27,202 nucleotides of DNA from a virus (lineage: Duplodnaviria; Heunggongvirae; Uroviricota; Caudoviricetes): IMG/VR virus record IMGVR_UViG_2541047882_000005; one strand, 5' to 3'. Positions within the stretch are counted from its first letter, which is position 1, and every line of letters begins with the position of its first letter. Position numbers and translations under genes: made by a program. The notes under the pieces are model-generated. The model was given only the letters and a program-made list of their open reading frames with translations, was not told the DNA's origin and made no database searches. This document shows positions 1,659 to 7,215 of this stretch, one piece after another.

Positions 1659-3557
1659 TTAAGAATCAGCCTGACTCGGGATCAGTTTTTGCCAGATAAC
1701 TGAAACGTATTTTGCCTGGTAACGGGCGTCATCAAGTGCATTATGGCGCTCACCTTCGAATGGAATAGCCGTTCTGGCATCGAAGTCTATGGCTTTCCCC
1801 AGCTCAACGATTGTGCGTACATCGCGATCGTTGTAGTAACGCCACGGGCAGGGGATCCCCTGCCGTTCGTATGAACGGCGCAAAATCGTGTTGTCGAAGT
1901 TGGCTCCATTTCCCCAAACCTGAACAAAAAATTCACCGGAGTTTTCGTCGATAAATTCTCGCAATTGTAACAGTGCATCATCTAACGGGATTTCATCGGT
2001 CATAATGGCAGATTGCGCTTCGCGTGATTGCTTAAGCCACCATTTAATGGTGTCCCGATCAATGACTCCGCCAGCAGTTTCCAGATCGATAGTCTTACTA
2101 AATTCCGGTCCCATATCTCCGGTTTGCGGATCGAAAAATATTGCACCTATTGAGATGATCGGGGCATCAGGATTTTTTCCCATGGTTTCAAGGTCGATCA
2201 TTAGATGGTCACACGTCCTGCTGGTGGATGTGATTTCGTGATGACCGTTCACCTTAATTGGGTGATCTGCCGTCTCGCCAGTTTCATTATCGCTATTGTG
2301 ATGCTGATTGCCGCCAGTGTTCTCCTTGTGTGGATGTTCAGCGCCTTCCATTTCCTCCGGATCATCTTCCTGAACTTCAACCTGATACTCTTCATCGAAT
2401 GTTTCTTGGTATGTTGCGTCGCCCATCACCGCGCCACAATCAGGGCAGTTGCCGCCGCCGGTCTGACCGCAGGCGGTGCAGACTTTTTCCACTTCCTGTT
2501 GCGCTACTGGTTCAGGCTGTTTCGTTTCTGGCTCGTTTTGTAACGCATTTGGACTGTTTTGTTCCGCTTTTTGGTAGTTCCGTTCCGATTCATGCTGGTT
2601 CTGGTTCACAGAATCGCGGGTCTGGAGCCCCTTAACCCATTTCGGATCATTCGGGTCACTAATCCCTTCAACAAATTCACCACGTGATGCAGCAAGCAAC
2701 TTATCGGCGTCAGGCTGGCTGATATTGGCTGCCTGCATAATTTTGTTTACTTCGTCAGCGGTAACTTTTATCGGCTCTGGTTGTTCTGAATCTTCAGCGG
2801 TATCTACATTTTGCGGTAAGCCCGTGTATGTGCCATTTTTTCGGGCAAAATATTCTTCTTTTGTGATTTCAGTGGCGCCAGCAGCCAGTGCCTTATCCAG
2901 ACCAGAGAGTTTGTTTGCGCGACCGTATTTTTCTCCGTCCTTATCTGCGAAGAGGAAATAGAACGGCCCCTCACGCTCTACAGATGGTTCAGCTTCCGGC
3001 GCGGTTTCATTTTTTGGGATATCAGATACCTCAGTTTCCACTGCATCAGTTTGTGTTTCTGATGACTGGAGAACATCAACAGTGCCCAGGTCTGTTTCTT
3101 CATTCTCAAACACGCCCTTTGTCGTCAGGTATTCGCAGATATATTTGTTCAGTGCTACGGGATCTTTGTGAATGTCGATCGGACGCTCACGGACAAGGCC
3201 AAAAATAGTTTGGCGGTCGTAGCGAAGGGCATCAGGCTGTTTGCGCATTGGTGCCGAGATACGCTTCCAGTCTTCGCGGTCGTTGTCGATAACTTCTTTT
3301 TTTGCCCAGCGATGGATGCTGCCGTCAATGTTTCCGGCATCCACATCACTAGGCCAGAGAGCGTAGGCCAGTTCGTCATCCAGTGTTTTCCATGTCTGCT
3401 TGTATTCGCGATGAATGGCAGCAATGACCGGGCTGATTTTTCCTGTTGAATTTTCAGTGTACTGTTGATTGGCTCTGGCGCGGGCGAGATCAACAACAGA
3501 CGTGTATTTTCCGGTTTCCTTGCGTTCACCTTCGCGACGTTTTTTCCAGATGCGCAT
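1659..3557 (-). CDS. RecE-like exonuclease with C-terminal DnaQ-type DEDDh 3'-5' exonuclease domain
   Basis: Central region matches the RecE (exonuclease VIII) acidic/zinc-finger segment as I recall it (..LLAASRGEFVEGISDPNDPKWVKG.., ..CTACGQTGGGNCPDCGAVMGDATYQETFDEE..); C-terminus shows DEDDh motifs (MIDLETMG, GNGANFD, HNALDDARYQ). The listed ORF extends to 3692 but that start is TTG; first in-frame ATG is 3557. Confidence 0.8.
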   Translation of the reverse strand: MRIWKKRREGERKETGKYTSVVDLARARANQQYTENSTGKISPVIAAIHREYKQTWKTLDDELAYALWPSDVDAGNIDGSIHRWAKKEVIDNDREDWKRISAPMRKQPDALRYDRQTIFGLVRERPIDIHKDPVALNKYICEYLTTKGVFENEETDLGTVDVLQSSETQTDAVETEVSDIPKNETAPEAEPSVEREGPFYFLFADKDGEKYGRANKLSGLDKALAAGATEITKEEYFARKNGTYTGLPQNVDTAEDSEQPEPIKVTADEVNKIMQAANISQPDADKLLAASRGEFVEGISDPNDPKWVKGLQTRDSVNQNQHESERNYQKAEQNSPNALQNEPETKQPEPVAQQEVEKVCTACGQTGGGNCPDCGAVMGDATYQETFDEEYQVEVQEDDPEEMEGAEHPHKENTGGNQHHNSDNETGETADHPIKVNGHHEITSTSRTCDHLMIDLETMGKNPDAPIISIGAIFFDPQTGDMGPEFSKTIDLETAGGVIDRDTIKWWLKQSREAQSAIMTDEIPLDDALLQLREFIDENSGEFFVQVWGNGANFDNTILRRSYERQGIPCPWRYYNDRDVRTIVELGKAIDFDARTAIPFEGERHNALDDARYQAKYVSVIWQKLIPSQADS

Positions 3558-3615
3558 CTCTGCCTGAATTTCGGGCCATTTAGCACCAGGAATACATTTA
3601 TGCTTAACCCACCCA

Positions 3616-3882
3616 ATGGCGTGCAACTTAAGCTCCGGATACGGGTTATTCCCCTCTGAACAGGCGCGTAAGGACTGGCAAAACGCCCGCAAAAAACTCT
3701 CGAGGGCAAAGGTGAAGAAACCTGCTGTGGTTGATCCGGACCTTATCTGGTCATCACCTGACGGAGAAATACGTCGCTACGACAGTCGCCTAAACATAAT
3801 CTGTCGCGAGTGCCGGAAGAGTGAAGTTATGCAGCGCATACTGGCTTTCTATCAGGGTAATTTTCAGGACGTGGCGCAGTGA
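3616..3882 (+). CDS. Hypothetical small protein (alternative GTG start at 3715 with GAGGG SD-like sequence)
   Basis: 88-aa ORF divergent from the exonuclease; ends 4 bp into the next ORF (GTGA overlap). No recognisable motifs beyond CxxC..CxxC-like spacing (CRECRK). Confidence 0.3.
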   Translation: MACNLSSGYGLFPSEQARKDWQNARKKLSRAKVKKPAVVDPDLIWSSPDGEIRRYDSRLNIICRECRKSEVMQRILAFYQGNFQDVAQ

Positions 3883-4235
3883 GTGCACCGGCAACCATTC
3901 TTGATATGTGCTGTGGCAGCCGCATGTTCTGGTTCGATAAGTCTGACGAACGGGCGATATTCAGCGATATCAGAAAAGAAGGATACACATTACGCAATGG
4001 GAGACGCTTGATTATCAGCCCTGACATTATCGCAGATTTTCGTGCATTATCATTTGCAGACGCATCTTTTTCGATGGTTGTATTAGACCCTCCGCATCTT
4101 GAGAGTGTTGGTGATAACGCCTGGATGGGAAAGAAATATGGACGGCTGAATAAAGATGCCTGGCGTGATGATTCGCGACAGAGATTTAAAGAAGCCTTTC
4201 GGGTGTTGAGGCCGCACGGCGTTCTGATTTTTTAA
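3879..4235 (+). pseudogene. SAM-dependent methyltransferase, probably C-terminally truncated
   Basis: Motif I-like LDMCCGS and motif IV-like VVLDPPH in gamma-class order; ORF stops after ..LRPHGVLIF, shorter than any complete class I methyltransferase fold. Confidence 0.45.
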
Positions 4236-4497
4236 TGGAATGAAACGCAAATACCGGTAAGCCAGATTCTGGCACTGACAGACAGAAAACCTGTTATCTG
4301 TCAACGAACAGGGAAAAAACGATAAAACCCACTGGATTATTTTTATGAAAGAGGCATCCAGTGAGTAGATTCGTAAGGCTACAGATACGTATATCTGAAT
4401 AATTAAATTCAGTTCTGTAAATAAGATTTAATCCTTAACCGGATGGATTTCTGCACCCTCAGAACATCAGGAGGCCGCCCGAAAGGGCGGTAGTGAA

Positions 4498-5133
4498 ATG
4501 CGAAAGTTCAAAATTATTATTGAAACGGGAATAGCTGGTGGAGATTTTGAGGATGTATTCGAAGTGGACGATGACGCAACACCTGAGGAAATTCATGACG
4601 GAGCATAAGAAATTTTCTTTAACTACTGCAATTACTCATACCACGAAATAAAAGACGATGAGGAAGAACAAAGTGGCTGATTTTTGTTCAGCTAAATATA
4701 ACATCAGTTTTGAAGAGCGGGATGAACTATTAATGGACTATGGTGAGTTACGCGGTGGAAGTGCTGCTGATGTCGAATCCTAGCGTGATGACTATGAAGC
4801 GGGAAAAACTCCGGTCGAAGCATATTGTGATGAGTGGGGCGATGAATGAGCGAGATTAATTATCAGGAAGGGCATGAAACGGCGGGGCAAGCAAAACCAG
4901 TGGCATGGCGATATCGCTACGTGAAAAAAGGCGTTACGGACTTTCAGGGGAAGTAGTGGTCTGGTGACTGGAAATATGTACCGAAAAAAGAGGATTGTAA
5001 CGACAGGCCGAACTATCAAATTCAGGCCTTATTCACTGCCTCACCAGTCCCAGTTACATCAGAAGAACTGGTTAAAGCTGTGCACTTTTATGAACAACTA
5101 AAACGCGAAAATCCACCAACATCCGGCAACTAG
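4498..5133 (+). pseudogene. Run of short, frame-interrupted ORFs (34, 39+21, 35, about 60 codons), probable decayed prophage genes
   Basis: Consecutive short reading frames separated by single stops or frame changes (e.g. ..AADVES-TAG-RDDYEAGKTPVEAYCDEWGDE; ..PVAWRYRYVKKGVTDFQGK-stop-VVWSGDWKYVPKKEDC..). Not in the supplied ORF track because each piece is under 60 aa. Confidence 0.25.
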
Positions 5134-5387
5134 ATTAATGGATTAACTATGTCGGTTAAACGACCAGCCAACTGAAAAAGCGGAAACCTGATTACAGGTT
5201 GCCAGATAAGGCAATGAGCTACCTGGCGCGGAACGGACTGATAAGTATGGGGAATGTTTTACGATGAACCTTTAGACTAAAGAGTTTGTAACGCTATGTA
5301 AGTGATTTTTTCTGGTTTAGATATTTATATGTCCGGCCAAATTGAGGTGTGTTTAAATGTAATTGCACATTGATTGTAGGAGGAATA

Positions 5388-5567
5388 ATGAAAAACGCAT
5401 TGCAGTTTTTGTTTGTTGCGTTCTGGTTGTTCGCATCATGTATGCCCATCATCTTCACAGCAAGGTATATGGAAAAAGTTGATGTTTTGATATTAATATT
5501 TGGATATATAAATGCCCTTTTTTTAGGGGTGTTCATGGCGGTCATGTGCATTGAATACTGGCGGTAA
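5388..5567 (+). CDS. Small two-helix membrane protein (59 aa), function unknown
   Basis: ATG at 5388 preceded by AGGAGG 5 nt upstream; two hydrophobic segments (ALQFLFVAFWLFASCMPIIF and VLILIFGYINALFLGVFMAVMCI). Confidence 0.4.
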   Translation: MKNALQFLFVAFWLFASCMPIIFTARYMEKVDVLILIFGYINALFLGVFMAVMCIEYWR

Positions 5568-5901
5568 ATACAGCGAACTCCATTGGTTTAGTTGGATATT
5601 TACTGTGCTGGACAAAAACGGTTTGCGGGGAAATCTTAGTTAAGTAGAATGACTGCGGGTGCTTGAGGCTATCTGCCTCGGGCATGGACACCAACGGCAG
5701 ATAGAGAAAAGCCCCAGTTAACATTACGCGTCCTGCAAGACGCTTAACATTAATCTGAGGCCAATTTCATGCTAGACACATGTAGGTTAGCCTCTTACGT
5801 GCCGAAAGGCACGGAGAAGCAGGCTATTGTTAACACCAAGCTGTAATGTCCCCTTTGAACCATTCTAAAATGTCCCCAGACAATTCTCTGGGGGATTTTT
5901 C

Positions 5902-7215
5902 ATGATCAAAGAGACTGTTACGATGAGTCATAAGGAACTCCACCGACTTCAGACTATTCAGGAACAAGCTGCGGCACGCATTGGCATTTCTATTCGGCAG
6001 GTTAAACGTCTGGTGCAACGGTATAGAAATGAAGGGCCTTCTGGTCTGGTTTCCCACCGACGTGGAAAGCGTCCTAATAATTCCTTTTCTACTGAATTCA
6101 GAGCAACAGTAATTTCACTCCTCAAAGGCCGTTACGCTGATTTTGGACCTACGTTTGCGTGCGAAAAATTGCGCGAGATACACGGTTTATCTTTATCCGT
6201 TGAAACTCTCAGAAAGTGGATGATAGAAGAGGGGTTATGGCGTGAACGCCGTCGTAAAATTGCCCGTATATATCAACGCCGCATGCGACGACCATCTTAC
6301 GGTGAACTGATCCAGATTGATGGCTCACCTCATGACTGGTTTGAAAATCGAGGCCCCAGATGTACACTGATCGTTTTCATTGATGATGCCACCAGTGCGT
6401 TGATGGCGTTGCGTTTTGTGCCTGCTGAAACAACCCGGGCTTACATGGAAACCCTCCGGGGTTACCTTAATGATCATGGCGTACCGCTCGCTCTCTACTC
6501 TGATAGACACAGTATATTCAGGGTAAATAACCCAGAGCGGGAAGGTGAGCTGACCCAGTTCACTCGTGCGATAAAGACACTGGGCATCGAGCCAATCCAT
6601 GCCAACAGCCCGCAGGCAAAAGGGCGGGTAGAGCGCGCCAATCAGACACTACAGGACAGGCTGGTCAAAGAAATGCGGCTTCAGAATATCAGTGATATTG
6701 AAACAGCAAATGCATGGTTGCCGACCTTTATTGAAGCCTATAACAACCGGTTCGCTACGTCGCCTCGTACTACTGATAATGCTCATCTTGATGTGCACCA
6801 TTCTGAAGAGGAACTGGGTTATATCTTCAGCCTACAGGCGAAGCGCGTTCTGTCTAAAAATCTCACTTTCCAGTACAAAAGCAGTGCGTTTCAGGTACGC
6901 AGTGAGGGCCGGGGATATCGACTTAGGCATTCGGTTGTTACTGTATGCGAGAACTTTGACGGTGAAATTAACGTTCTGTATGACGGGAAAGCGCTGGGCT
7001 GGGAAAAGTATGTTGATGGCCCGGAGCCTATACCACTGGATGATGAAAAGAGTGTCCATGAACGAGTGGATAATGCCCGTATTGATTTACGCTCAAAATA
7101 CTATGTTAAACCTAAAGCTGACCATCCCTGGCTTACGCGCCGAACGCAAAGTCATCAGCAAGTTAAGCCCCCGAAGTTACCTAAAAAGAAGCCTGATCCC
7201 GATAAAAAAGATTGA
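5902..7215 (+). CDS. DDE transposase with N-terminal HTH and integrase-core (rve) domain, IS481/ISNCY-like
   Basis: 437 aa; HTH-like GISIRQVKRLVQRY; catalytic-core motifs IQIDGSPHDW, FIDDATS, and SPQAKGRVERANQTLQ (the D,D-35-E region); GGGGA SD upstream of ATG. Confidence 0.85.
   Translation: MIKETVTMSHKELHRLQTIQEQAAARIGISIRQVKRLVQRYRNEGPSGLVSHRRGKRPNNSFSTEFRATVISLLKGRYADFGPTFACEKLREIHGLSLSVETLRKWMIEEGLWRERRRKIARIYQRRMRRPSYGELIQIDGSPHDWFENRGPRCTLIVFIDDATSALMALRFVPAETTRAYMETLRGYLNDHGVPLALYSDRHSIFRVNNPEREGELTQFTRAIKTLGIEPIHANSPQAKGRVERANQTLQDRLVKEMRLQNISDIETANAWLPTFIEAYNNRFATSPRTTDNAHLDVHHSEEELGYIFSLQAKRVLSKNLTFQYKSSAFQVRSEGRGYRLRHSVVTVCENFDGEINVLYDGKALGWEKYVDGPEPIPLDDEKSVHERVDNARIDLRSKYYVKPKADHPWLTRRTQSHQQVKPPKLPKKKPDPDKKD

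Follow-up and report, generated by a model that had tools for sequence, protein, structure and literature searches.

A probable dead three-gene operon behind a conserved intergenic hairpin module in a cryptic Qin prophage of Escherichia coli

The locus and its three genes

The window (the whole stretch of 27,202 nt that was analysed, IMG/VR record IMGVR_UViG_2541047882_000005) matches hundreds of E. coli chromosomes at 100% identity over its first 12 kb. In E. coli strain HH35, the counterpart region adjoins ynfA-rspAB and carries, in this order, integrase and excisionase genes, a truncated 3′-5′ exonuclease gene, a truncated DUF977 gene, a methyltransferase gene, a gene of a DUF7167 family protein (pseudo, internal stop), a gene of a hypothetical protein (pseudo, frameshifted; internal stop), a partial ISNCY transposase gene and then ydfW, flxA, ydfV, relBE, hokD, rem, ydfU, ydfT, cspF/B and the lysis genes. 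Judged by sequence, the element in which the locus resides is the cryptic Qin prophage of E. coli, in a decayed form. A full-length element of the Qin type is represented by the deposited phage PhiR42_1, which has immunity of the dicA/dicC type as well as cII, O and the genes for head and tail.

The features of the region are collected in Table 1. A leader with a Shine-Dalgarno-like (SD) AGGAGG and a GAAA-tetraloop hairpin is followed by three consecutive pseudogenes, referred to below as g1, g2 and g3. The AGGAGG, the hairpin and the ATG at 4498 had been picked out by an earlier sequence-only reading of this DNA, and all of them lie exactly where that reading had put them.

Table 1. Coordinates of features at the g1-g3 locus and its surroundings (positions in the window)
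Feature	Position	Strand	Remarks
Deletion junction (~4.6 kb)	3633-3642	.	blastn against full-length PhiR42_1
Intergenic linker module, ~97 nt	4395-4491	+	Homology to other phages starts and ends at its edges
SD-like AGGAGG	4469-4474	+	23 nt linear distance to ATG 4498
GC hairpin, GAAA tetraloop	4475-4490	+	CCGCCC 4475-4480, GAAA 4481-4484, GGGCGG 4485-4490
g1, DUF7167 pseudogene	4498-4680	+	AAA>TAA at codon 37 (4606-4608); original TGA stop 4678-4680
g2 pseudogene, phrog_519	4673-4849	+	Start ATG>GTG at 4673; TGG>TAG at codon 37 (4781-4783)
g3 pseudogene, phrog_660	4846-5267	+	TAGs 4954-4956 (codon 37) and 5131-5133; indels
sok match (Rfam)	5657-5828	+	104 bits against a gathering score of 59

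Intact counterparts of all three genes are present in related prophages at ca. 88-93% identity. In E. coli S12 (locus L003), they form overlapping open reading frames (ORFs) of 183, 177 and 516 bp, which encode proteins of 60, 58 and 171 amino acids and are the uninterrupted homologues that the sequence-only reading had proposed to look for. The g2 ATG overlaps the g1 stop codon (8-nt overlap, ATGGCTGA), and the g3 ATG overlaps the g2 stop codon (4-nt overlap, ATGA). Overlapping stop and start codons are the classic layout of translationally coupled genes. A per-gene census of loci retrieved 24 in which g1, g2 and g3 are all intact.

The intact g1 homologue, a very acidic protein of 60 amino acids, matches Pfam family DUF7167 (PF23768) with 52.1 bits (cut-off 24.4), and the g1 of the window is a 90%-identical allele of this homologue with an internal stop, named DUF7167 by PGAP. 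In the PHROG collection g1, g2 and g3 match families 1997, 519 and 660, respectively; the function of each of these families, as of PF23768, is unknown. Searches for sequence relatives of DUF7167 in the PDB and for literature on its function retrieved nothing, and the AF2 model of the domain (pLDDT 79, beta-beta-alpha-beta-alpha) gave no significant Foldseek match. A kinship with small acidic phage inhibitors of the p56 or T7 Gp2 type was considered and rejected, the Foldseek resemblance being at chance level only.

Lesions in g1-g3 and loss of the native promoter

Lesions were placed by alignment of the window to intact loci, by the per-gene census and by inspection of g3 translations. The ORF list of the window contains frames at 4498-4608 (36 aa, beginning with MRKFK), 4658-4783 (41 aa, beginning with MRKNK) and 4846-4956 (36 aa), and the g3 frame resumes after 4956 with open stretches up to its second TAG. 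Relative to intact alleles, g3 also has a 90-bp gap between 5109 and 5110 and a 4-bp deletion after 5164, and its C-terminal remnant (...LISMGNVLR*) is found at 5199-5267. Thus, the series of short frames that had been noted from the letters is present as described, but the cluster extends further downstream than had been assumed, to 5267, in line with the PGAP annotation. Single in-frame stop codons separate the frames, as do the shifts of frame that come naturally with overlapping genes. As to the two similar MRK(F/N)K beginnings, to which the sequence-only reading had drawn attention, the likeness is coincidental: an A>T change (GAAGAGG to GATGAGG) gave the g2 frame a new ATG (4658), five codons ahead of the original start, which makes the MRKNK start spurious.

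Identical copies of g1 ("internal stop") and g3 ("frameshifted; internal stop") are already listed as pseudogenes in PGAP/RefSeq annotations; g2 is left unannotated by PGAP in the RefSeq copies and is, therefore, a missed pseudogene. The premature stops differ in type (AAA>TAA, TGG>TAG and C(C/A)G>TAG). CAG alleles of g3 codon 37 exist, so that CAG>TAG provides a one-step route to its stop. The same TAG is present in many loci in which g1 and g2 are intact, and g3 is often broken elsewhere. Since the g3 stop is found alone at such loci, we conclude that the three stops are separate events.

All three premature stops at codon 37 lie 108 nt past the respective starts and leave 36 codons each. 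Calculated post hoc from the codons that are one step away from a stop, the chance of a shared codon 37 is ca. 1/16 x 1/85. We regard the shared position as a coincidence, since the stops arose by different types of mutation and that of g3 has independent occurrences elsewhere. A further observation concerns protein P0033, encoded by a metagenome contig: it represents the window-type g1 allele with a 21-bp deletion between two GAAATT direct repeats (window positions 4590-4616). This deletion removes the TAA and restores a continuous frame of 53 amino acids, making the allele an apparent pseudo-revertant. There are also window-like g1 proteins that are intact, P0001 among them.

The dN/dS ratios between the window and the intact allele are 0.105 for g1, 0.209 for g2 and 0.243 for g3, implying that nearly all of the divergence arose under protein-level constraint and that inactivation came late. 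By comparison with the intact loci, g1-g3 are once-real genes that went through ordinary decay and were inactivated late. With a premature stop in each gene and additional indels in g3, no full-length product is possible. We consider it very probable that the segment 4498-5267 is a dead, coupled three-gene operon, similar to those of nin regions, of a Qin/Rac-type lambdoid prophage, situated behind a conserved intergenic module. The decayed gene pair suggested by the sequence-only reading was thus right as to decay, for which intact homologues were found, but not as to number, there being three genes rather than two.

Comparison of the window with PhiR42_1 by blastn revealed a clean deletion of 4,610 bp with a ca. 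10-bp overlap at the junction, where a truncated exonuclease VIII-like gene on the minus strand is now joined to what is left of the DUF977 gene, its 3′ part. Gone with the deleted DNA are ydfD/C/B, dicA, dicC, cII and O, which belong to the region of immunity and replication, and therefore also the rightward promoter from which the g1-g3 operon was natively transcribed. Since PhiR42_1 already has the same broken g1-g3 frames and the same IS element, the premature stops are older than the deletion. Truncation of g1 would make ribosomes stop 66 nt before the g2 start, after which coupling-dependent translation of g2 and g3 would collapse and all three genes would drift. In a vertically inherited prophage, relaxed selection on dispensable nin-region genes would then let further lesions pile up, and the later 4.6-kb deletion, by taking the native rightward promoter, would end any leftover expression.

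The main alternative for the frames is that they encode genuine peptides of 36-41 amino acids, possibly extended by readthrough or made by termination-reinitiation; the sequence-only reading had likewise offered small proteins with readthrough or coupling as one explanation. The g1 leader and ATG are intact and, given transcription of the region, could yield a 36-aa peptide, all three truncated frames have exactly 36 codons, a regularity for which we have no explanation, and the allele is stably kept in more than 500 genomes. However, the stops are derived, and most relatives have continuous frames of 60, 58 and 171 amino acids; conservation of a stop among functional homologues, which would mark programmed readthrough, was thus not observed. 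The sequence past each stop still matches the intact proteins, the mixture of mutation types and the solitary g3 stop in other prophages point to separate events, and g3 has a second stop and indels besides. Also, the Shigella flexneri copy has gained a 1-bp deletion, the native promoter region is deleted and vertical inheritance of a cryptic prophage would account for the wide carriage. We therefore hold genuine small proteins of this kind to be very unlikely, although the 36-aa fragment of g1, whose leader is intact, may still be translated; the short ORFs should not be called small proteins, a point of value for annotation only. Errors of sequencing or assembly in an operon that is really intact can be dismissed as the source of the frame breaks, since the lesions are base substitutions rather than homopolymer-length errors and the identical allele is found at at least 99% identity in 512 independently assembled complete E. 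coli genomes, as well as in PhiR42_1 and Shigella flexneri.

In the census of loci, the triple-stop allele was found only in Qin-type copies and in Shigella flexneri, the copy of the latter having the same three stops in addition to its deletion. HH35 and ECOR13 are examples of strains with the Qin allele. The census of viral contigs was assembled by similarity to intact g1 and is biased towards intact g1, so frequencies were taken from the search of E. coli genomes and from a leader-anchored sample chosen independently of the state of g1. The leader-anchored sample contains 36 contexts with a 60-aa g1 and 7 with the truncated 36-aa g1. The g1-g3 region can serve as a marker of the decayed Qin prophage in about one-tenth of complete E. 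coli genomes. Two records in our sample drew attention for another reason. A contig of a metagenome-assembled genome labelled "Collinsella sp." (JAIHTM010000290.1, locus L006) has this E. coli lambdoid segment (97% protein identity by tblastn), and PP818812.1 ("Actinobacillus phage vB_Apl-pPE4") has it at 88-94% DNA identity, which suggests that the former is a mis-binned contig and that the host assignment of the latter is questionable.

The g1-g3 lesions are of the same kind as those of other pseudogenes of the Qin/Kim and Rac cryptic prophages, where nonsense mutations, indels, IS insertion and large deletions affect non-essential early genes; nothing essential differs, apart from g2 being unannotated and the three stops falling at the same codon number. 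Decay elsewhere in this prophage includes the truncated exonuclease and DUF977 genes, the 4.6-kb deletion and an IS within a hok gene. The leader of the latter is conserved up to ...GGAGAAGCAGGCTAT, where an ISNCY/ISEsa1-like element starts (junction at ca. 5829); therefore, the IS has interrupted this second hok gene right at the start codon. It is separate from hokD, which adjoins relBE. Between g3 and hok lies an ORF (5389-5567, plus strand) for a hydrophobic protein of 59 amino acids with two predicted membrane-like segments, preceded by AGGAGGAATAATG. The ORF is ca. 98% conserved in all loci compared and unannotated in the RefSeq copies; its coding status is doubtful, since all four differences among three loci are non-synonymous.

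The leader module at mosaic joints

A search with window positions 4440-4960 retrieved, besides loci with g1, short matches that covered only the first ca. 60 nt and were located before other genes. Four annotated examples, with the module in front of DUF7167, a DUF4014 gene (O157:H7), an ORF of 135 amino acids and an antiterminator Q gene, were aligned. The identical stretch common to all four is AATCCTTAACCGGAGGGATTTCTGCACCCTCAGAACATCAGGAGG-CCGCCCGAAAGGGCGG-T, and the sequences diverge completely right past the 3′ arm of the hairpin. At the other end, homology begins at query position 96 (window position 4395), and the unit so delimited, which ends right after GGGCGGT, is ca. 97 nt long. Its left edge, CTGAATAATTAA, provides a stop codon in each frame, and three different upstream genes, whose products end in ...SRTE, ...RAPE and ...IKTE, terminate at the same TAA there.

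We next scanned the viral collection with a 17-mer that precedes the hairpin and thus does not favour particular stem variants. The scan retrieved 193 instances, which represent 78 distinct contexts. In these contexts, 10 classes of upstream genes and 8 of downstream genes are joined in 24 different combinations, with reticulate assortment, and at least seven unrelated gene families are found downstream of the module. It follows that the module is a mosaic joint rather than a feature of DUF7167. Start regions of distant DUF7167 loci (Pseudomonas and a Bacilli metagenome-assembled genome), when examined for an equivalent hairpin, lacked it and were ordinary. On the evidence of these alignments, the AGGAGG-hairpin is the 3′ end of a conserved mobile intergenic module and not a part of g1. 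This cassette is the only part of our findings that has some novelty.

In every downstream gene class, the ATG is located 6-11 nt past the stem. No SD is present in the intervening A/T-rich spacers (TAGTTAA, TAAGAA, TAATGAAAA, AACAGATA and TAACAAATA, among others), the exception being the spacer of the Q-type gene, TGGAGATAATA, which has its own GGAG. In the window, the spacer between the stem and the ATG is TAGTGAA (4491-4497). Taken as one 22-nt string, the SD and the hairpin have a single match in the window, 100 shuffled sequences gave none, and no other copies of the cassette or repeats were found within the window.

The module was also inspected for signals of other kinds. A promoter scan detected no σ70-type promoter-like site in 4395-4491, and a terminator scan of both strands did not call the hairpin; none of the gene classes has a T-run after the stem (TAGTGAAATG here; TAAGAA, TAATGAAAA and similar sequences elsewhere). 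A scan of positions 3500-6000 against Rfam 15 (E-values up to 1) returned nothing at the leader (4395-4500), only the sok match downstream. The module was checked against the prophage Pas sRNAs and is unrelated to them. The core of the hairpin, GCCC-GAAA-GGGC, resembles lambda boxB; a boxB/nut-like reading was set aside, however, since the loop is of 4 nt, a partner similar to boxA was not recognised and the hairpin lies in the nin region directly before start codons.

Two peculiarities of the window-type module were observed in passing. Its first 18 nt, CTGAATAATTAAATTCAG (4395-4412), form a perfect palindrome with 6-bp arms; most other copies of the module have ATTTAG at the palindrome, a change that is G.U-compatible in the plus-strand RNA. 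A mini-ORF of 16 codons (4443-4493, plus strand) runs across the SD and the hairpin and ends with a TAG at 4491-4493, 4 nt before the g1 ATG. Its ATG resulted from a G>T change (GGAGGG to GGATGG) in the window-type allele and is missing in the common leader type.

The hairpin and translation initiation

The stem consists of six base pairs, all of them G+C, and a seventh G.U pair is possible. The predicted folding energy of the hairpin is -15.5 kcal/mol, and a z-score of -1.98, a modest value, was obtained for a 61-nt context. When the whole module is folded, the GC hairpin alone survives in the centroid (z = -1.68); weak alternative pairings of CCCUC with GGAGGG or with AGGAGG were also considered. 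For AGGAGG, a duplex of -10.3 kcal/mol with the 3′ end of 16S rRNA is predicted. We therefore considered a split ribosome-binding site (RBS): the GAAA hairpin would loop out 16 nt in the mRNA, and AGGAGG would effectively be 6-11 nt from the next start codon. We give this arrangement about an even chance.

The variation among the 193 instances bears on the folding of the module RNA. In 185 of them the hairpin of the plus-strand RNA is predicted at -10 kcal/mol or lower, whereas the stem of the complementary strand falls to between -2 and -9 kcal/mol. All stem variants of appreciable frequency are C>U changes in the 5′ arm that keep G.U pairs. With four sites hit by each type of change, wobble-preserving C>U changes have 54 carriers in the stem against 6 for pair-breaking G>A changes, with carriers not being independent events; in the flanking 32 nt the carriers of C>U and G>A changes are balanced (11 and 8). 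A covariation test on 13 hairpin haplotypes revealed no compensatory double changes, and the 91% of cells that are paired are no better than in column shuffles; for lack of such covariation, a function of the hairpin is something that we infer. All instances are very close relatives, and the conservation of the leader could reflect recent spread or recombination rather than RNA function. The ordinary, hairpin-free start regions of the distant DUF7167 loci and the lack of an Rfam match also count against a role of the hairpin. As to the earlier proposal that the hairpin brings the SD closer to the start, bridging is plausible and has comparative support, but compensatory covariation was not seen and the mobile module does not belong to g1.

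The alternative is that the hairpin has nothing to do with SD bridging and is a recombination linker only, a stabiliser of RNA 3′ ends, an attenuator of upstream transcription or an inhibitory cover of a weak SD (GGGCGGU). We rate this as possible and short of probable, and with the same reserve AGGAGG would be, at most, a standby site. The reticulate assortment on both sides, which marks the module as a mosaic joint, the three different upstream genes that end in its left edge and the result of the covariation test all agree with this alternative, as does the GGAG that the Q-type gene has for itself. The 3′ arm GGGCGGU can pair with the anti-SD (-8.1 kcal/mol) at ideal spacing, and the hairpin might therefore inhibit translation. 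There is also a precedent in T4-type phages, whose PeSL cassettes, conserved intergenic stem-loops, are terminators and recombination linkers (Arbiol et al. 2010, PMC2839356). Against it stand the missing T-run past the stem in all gene classes, the negative terminator scan and the lack of a promoter-like site in the module. Moreover, an SD of their own is missing from six of the seven downstream families, whose ATGs are nevertheless found 6-9 nt past the stem; such a placement has no easy explanation if the upstream AGGAGG does not serve those genes, and the variation pattern keeps the stem of the plus-strand RNA.

Bridging and recombination may be combined. Conservation of the module sequence would also let it serve as a homologous-recombination linker for swapping of neighbouring genes. 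We tentatively propose, as a possibility, that the module, with a stop codon for each frame, an A/T-rich stretch, AGGAGG and a GC hairpin capped by a GNRA loop, serves lambdoid nin regions as a portable cassette for plug-and-play translation. It would end any incoming gene, supply a hairpin-bridged RBS to the gene that recombination has put 6-11 nt downstream and, through the homology that its conservation provides, drive gene shuffling.

Two known systems can be compared with such a cassette. In summaries of the T4 work (PMC3014915; PMC7297116, which cover the primary sources Gold 1988, Nivinskas et al. 1999 and Malys & Nivinskas 2009), hairpins are described as cutting the SD-AUG spacing from 22 to 5 nt for gene 38 and from 27 to 11 nt for gene 25; destabilisation of the stem lowers translation, and the split RBS is described there as confined to close T-even phages. 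The lambdoid leader is similar to those of genes 38 and 25 in that a strong SD is too far from the start (23 nt here and 22 and 27 nt in T4), a predicted stem-loop lies wholly between the SD and the start, leaving 7 nt in the window and 6-11 nt over all gene classes, and the arrangement is limited to a close clade and missing in distant homologues. Unlike in T4, the cassette is tied to no single gene and is found before at least seven unrelated genes at mosaic joints; its predicted stem forms a GC clamp of 6 bp under a GNRA tetraloop, and no covariation was seen.

The second system is provided by the PeSL cassettes and by the linker sequences that Botstein's modular theory postulates for lambdoid phages, as discussed in the PeSL paper (PMC2839356). 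Here, too, a conserved intergenic unit leads from an upstream stop codon via a stem-loop and an SD to a downstream start, flanks small non-essential ORFs of unknown function and marks points of gene exchange; a conserved intergenic motif with variable genes on both sides, as defined for PeSL, is what the 24 combinations represent. The lambdoid module differs from PeSL in having no σ70 promoter, in its stem-loop being located after the SD rather than before it and in the absence of a T-run or any sign of terminator activity. Unlike for PeSL, no mini-circle formation is implied, since there is only one copy of the module in the window. By analogy with these systems, it is plausible that the leader works like a split RBS and a linker. 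If this is true, the portable cassette would be a lambdoid counterpart, at the level of translation, of the T4 PeSL cassettes. Its confirmation would make it the first split RBS described outside T-even phages and would provide a concrete, sequence-defined example of the "linker" long postulated for modular exchange in lambdoid phages.

The arrangement has a consequence for gene calling. Start codons 6-11 nt past the hairpin are easily mis-annotated because they have no local SD, and the leader is useful for their recognition. In this connection, the DUF7167 database entries P0002-P0007 are 78-93 amino acids long, which implies an upstream start codon, unlike the PGAP start for DUF7167, which is the ATG located 7 nt past the hairpin. 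The absence of an SD adjacent to this PGAP ATG may be what gave rise to the entries with upstream starts.
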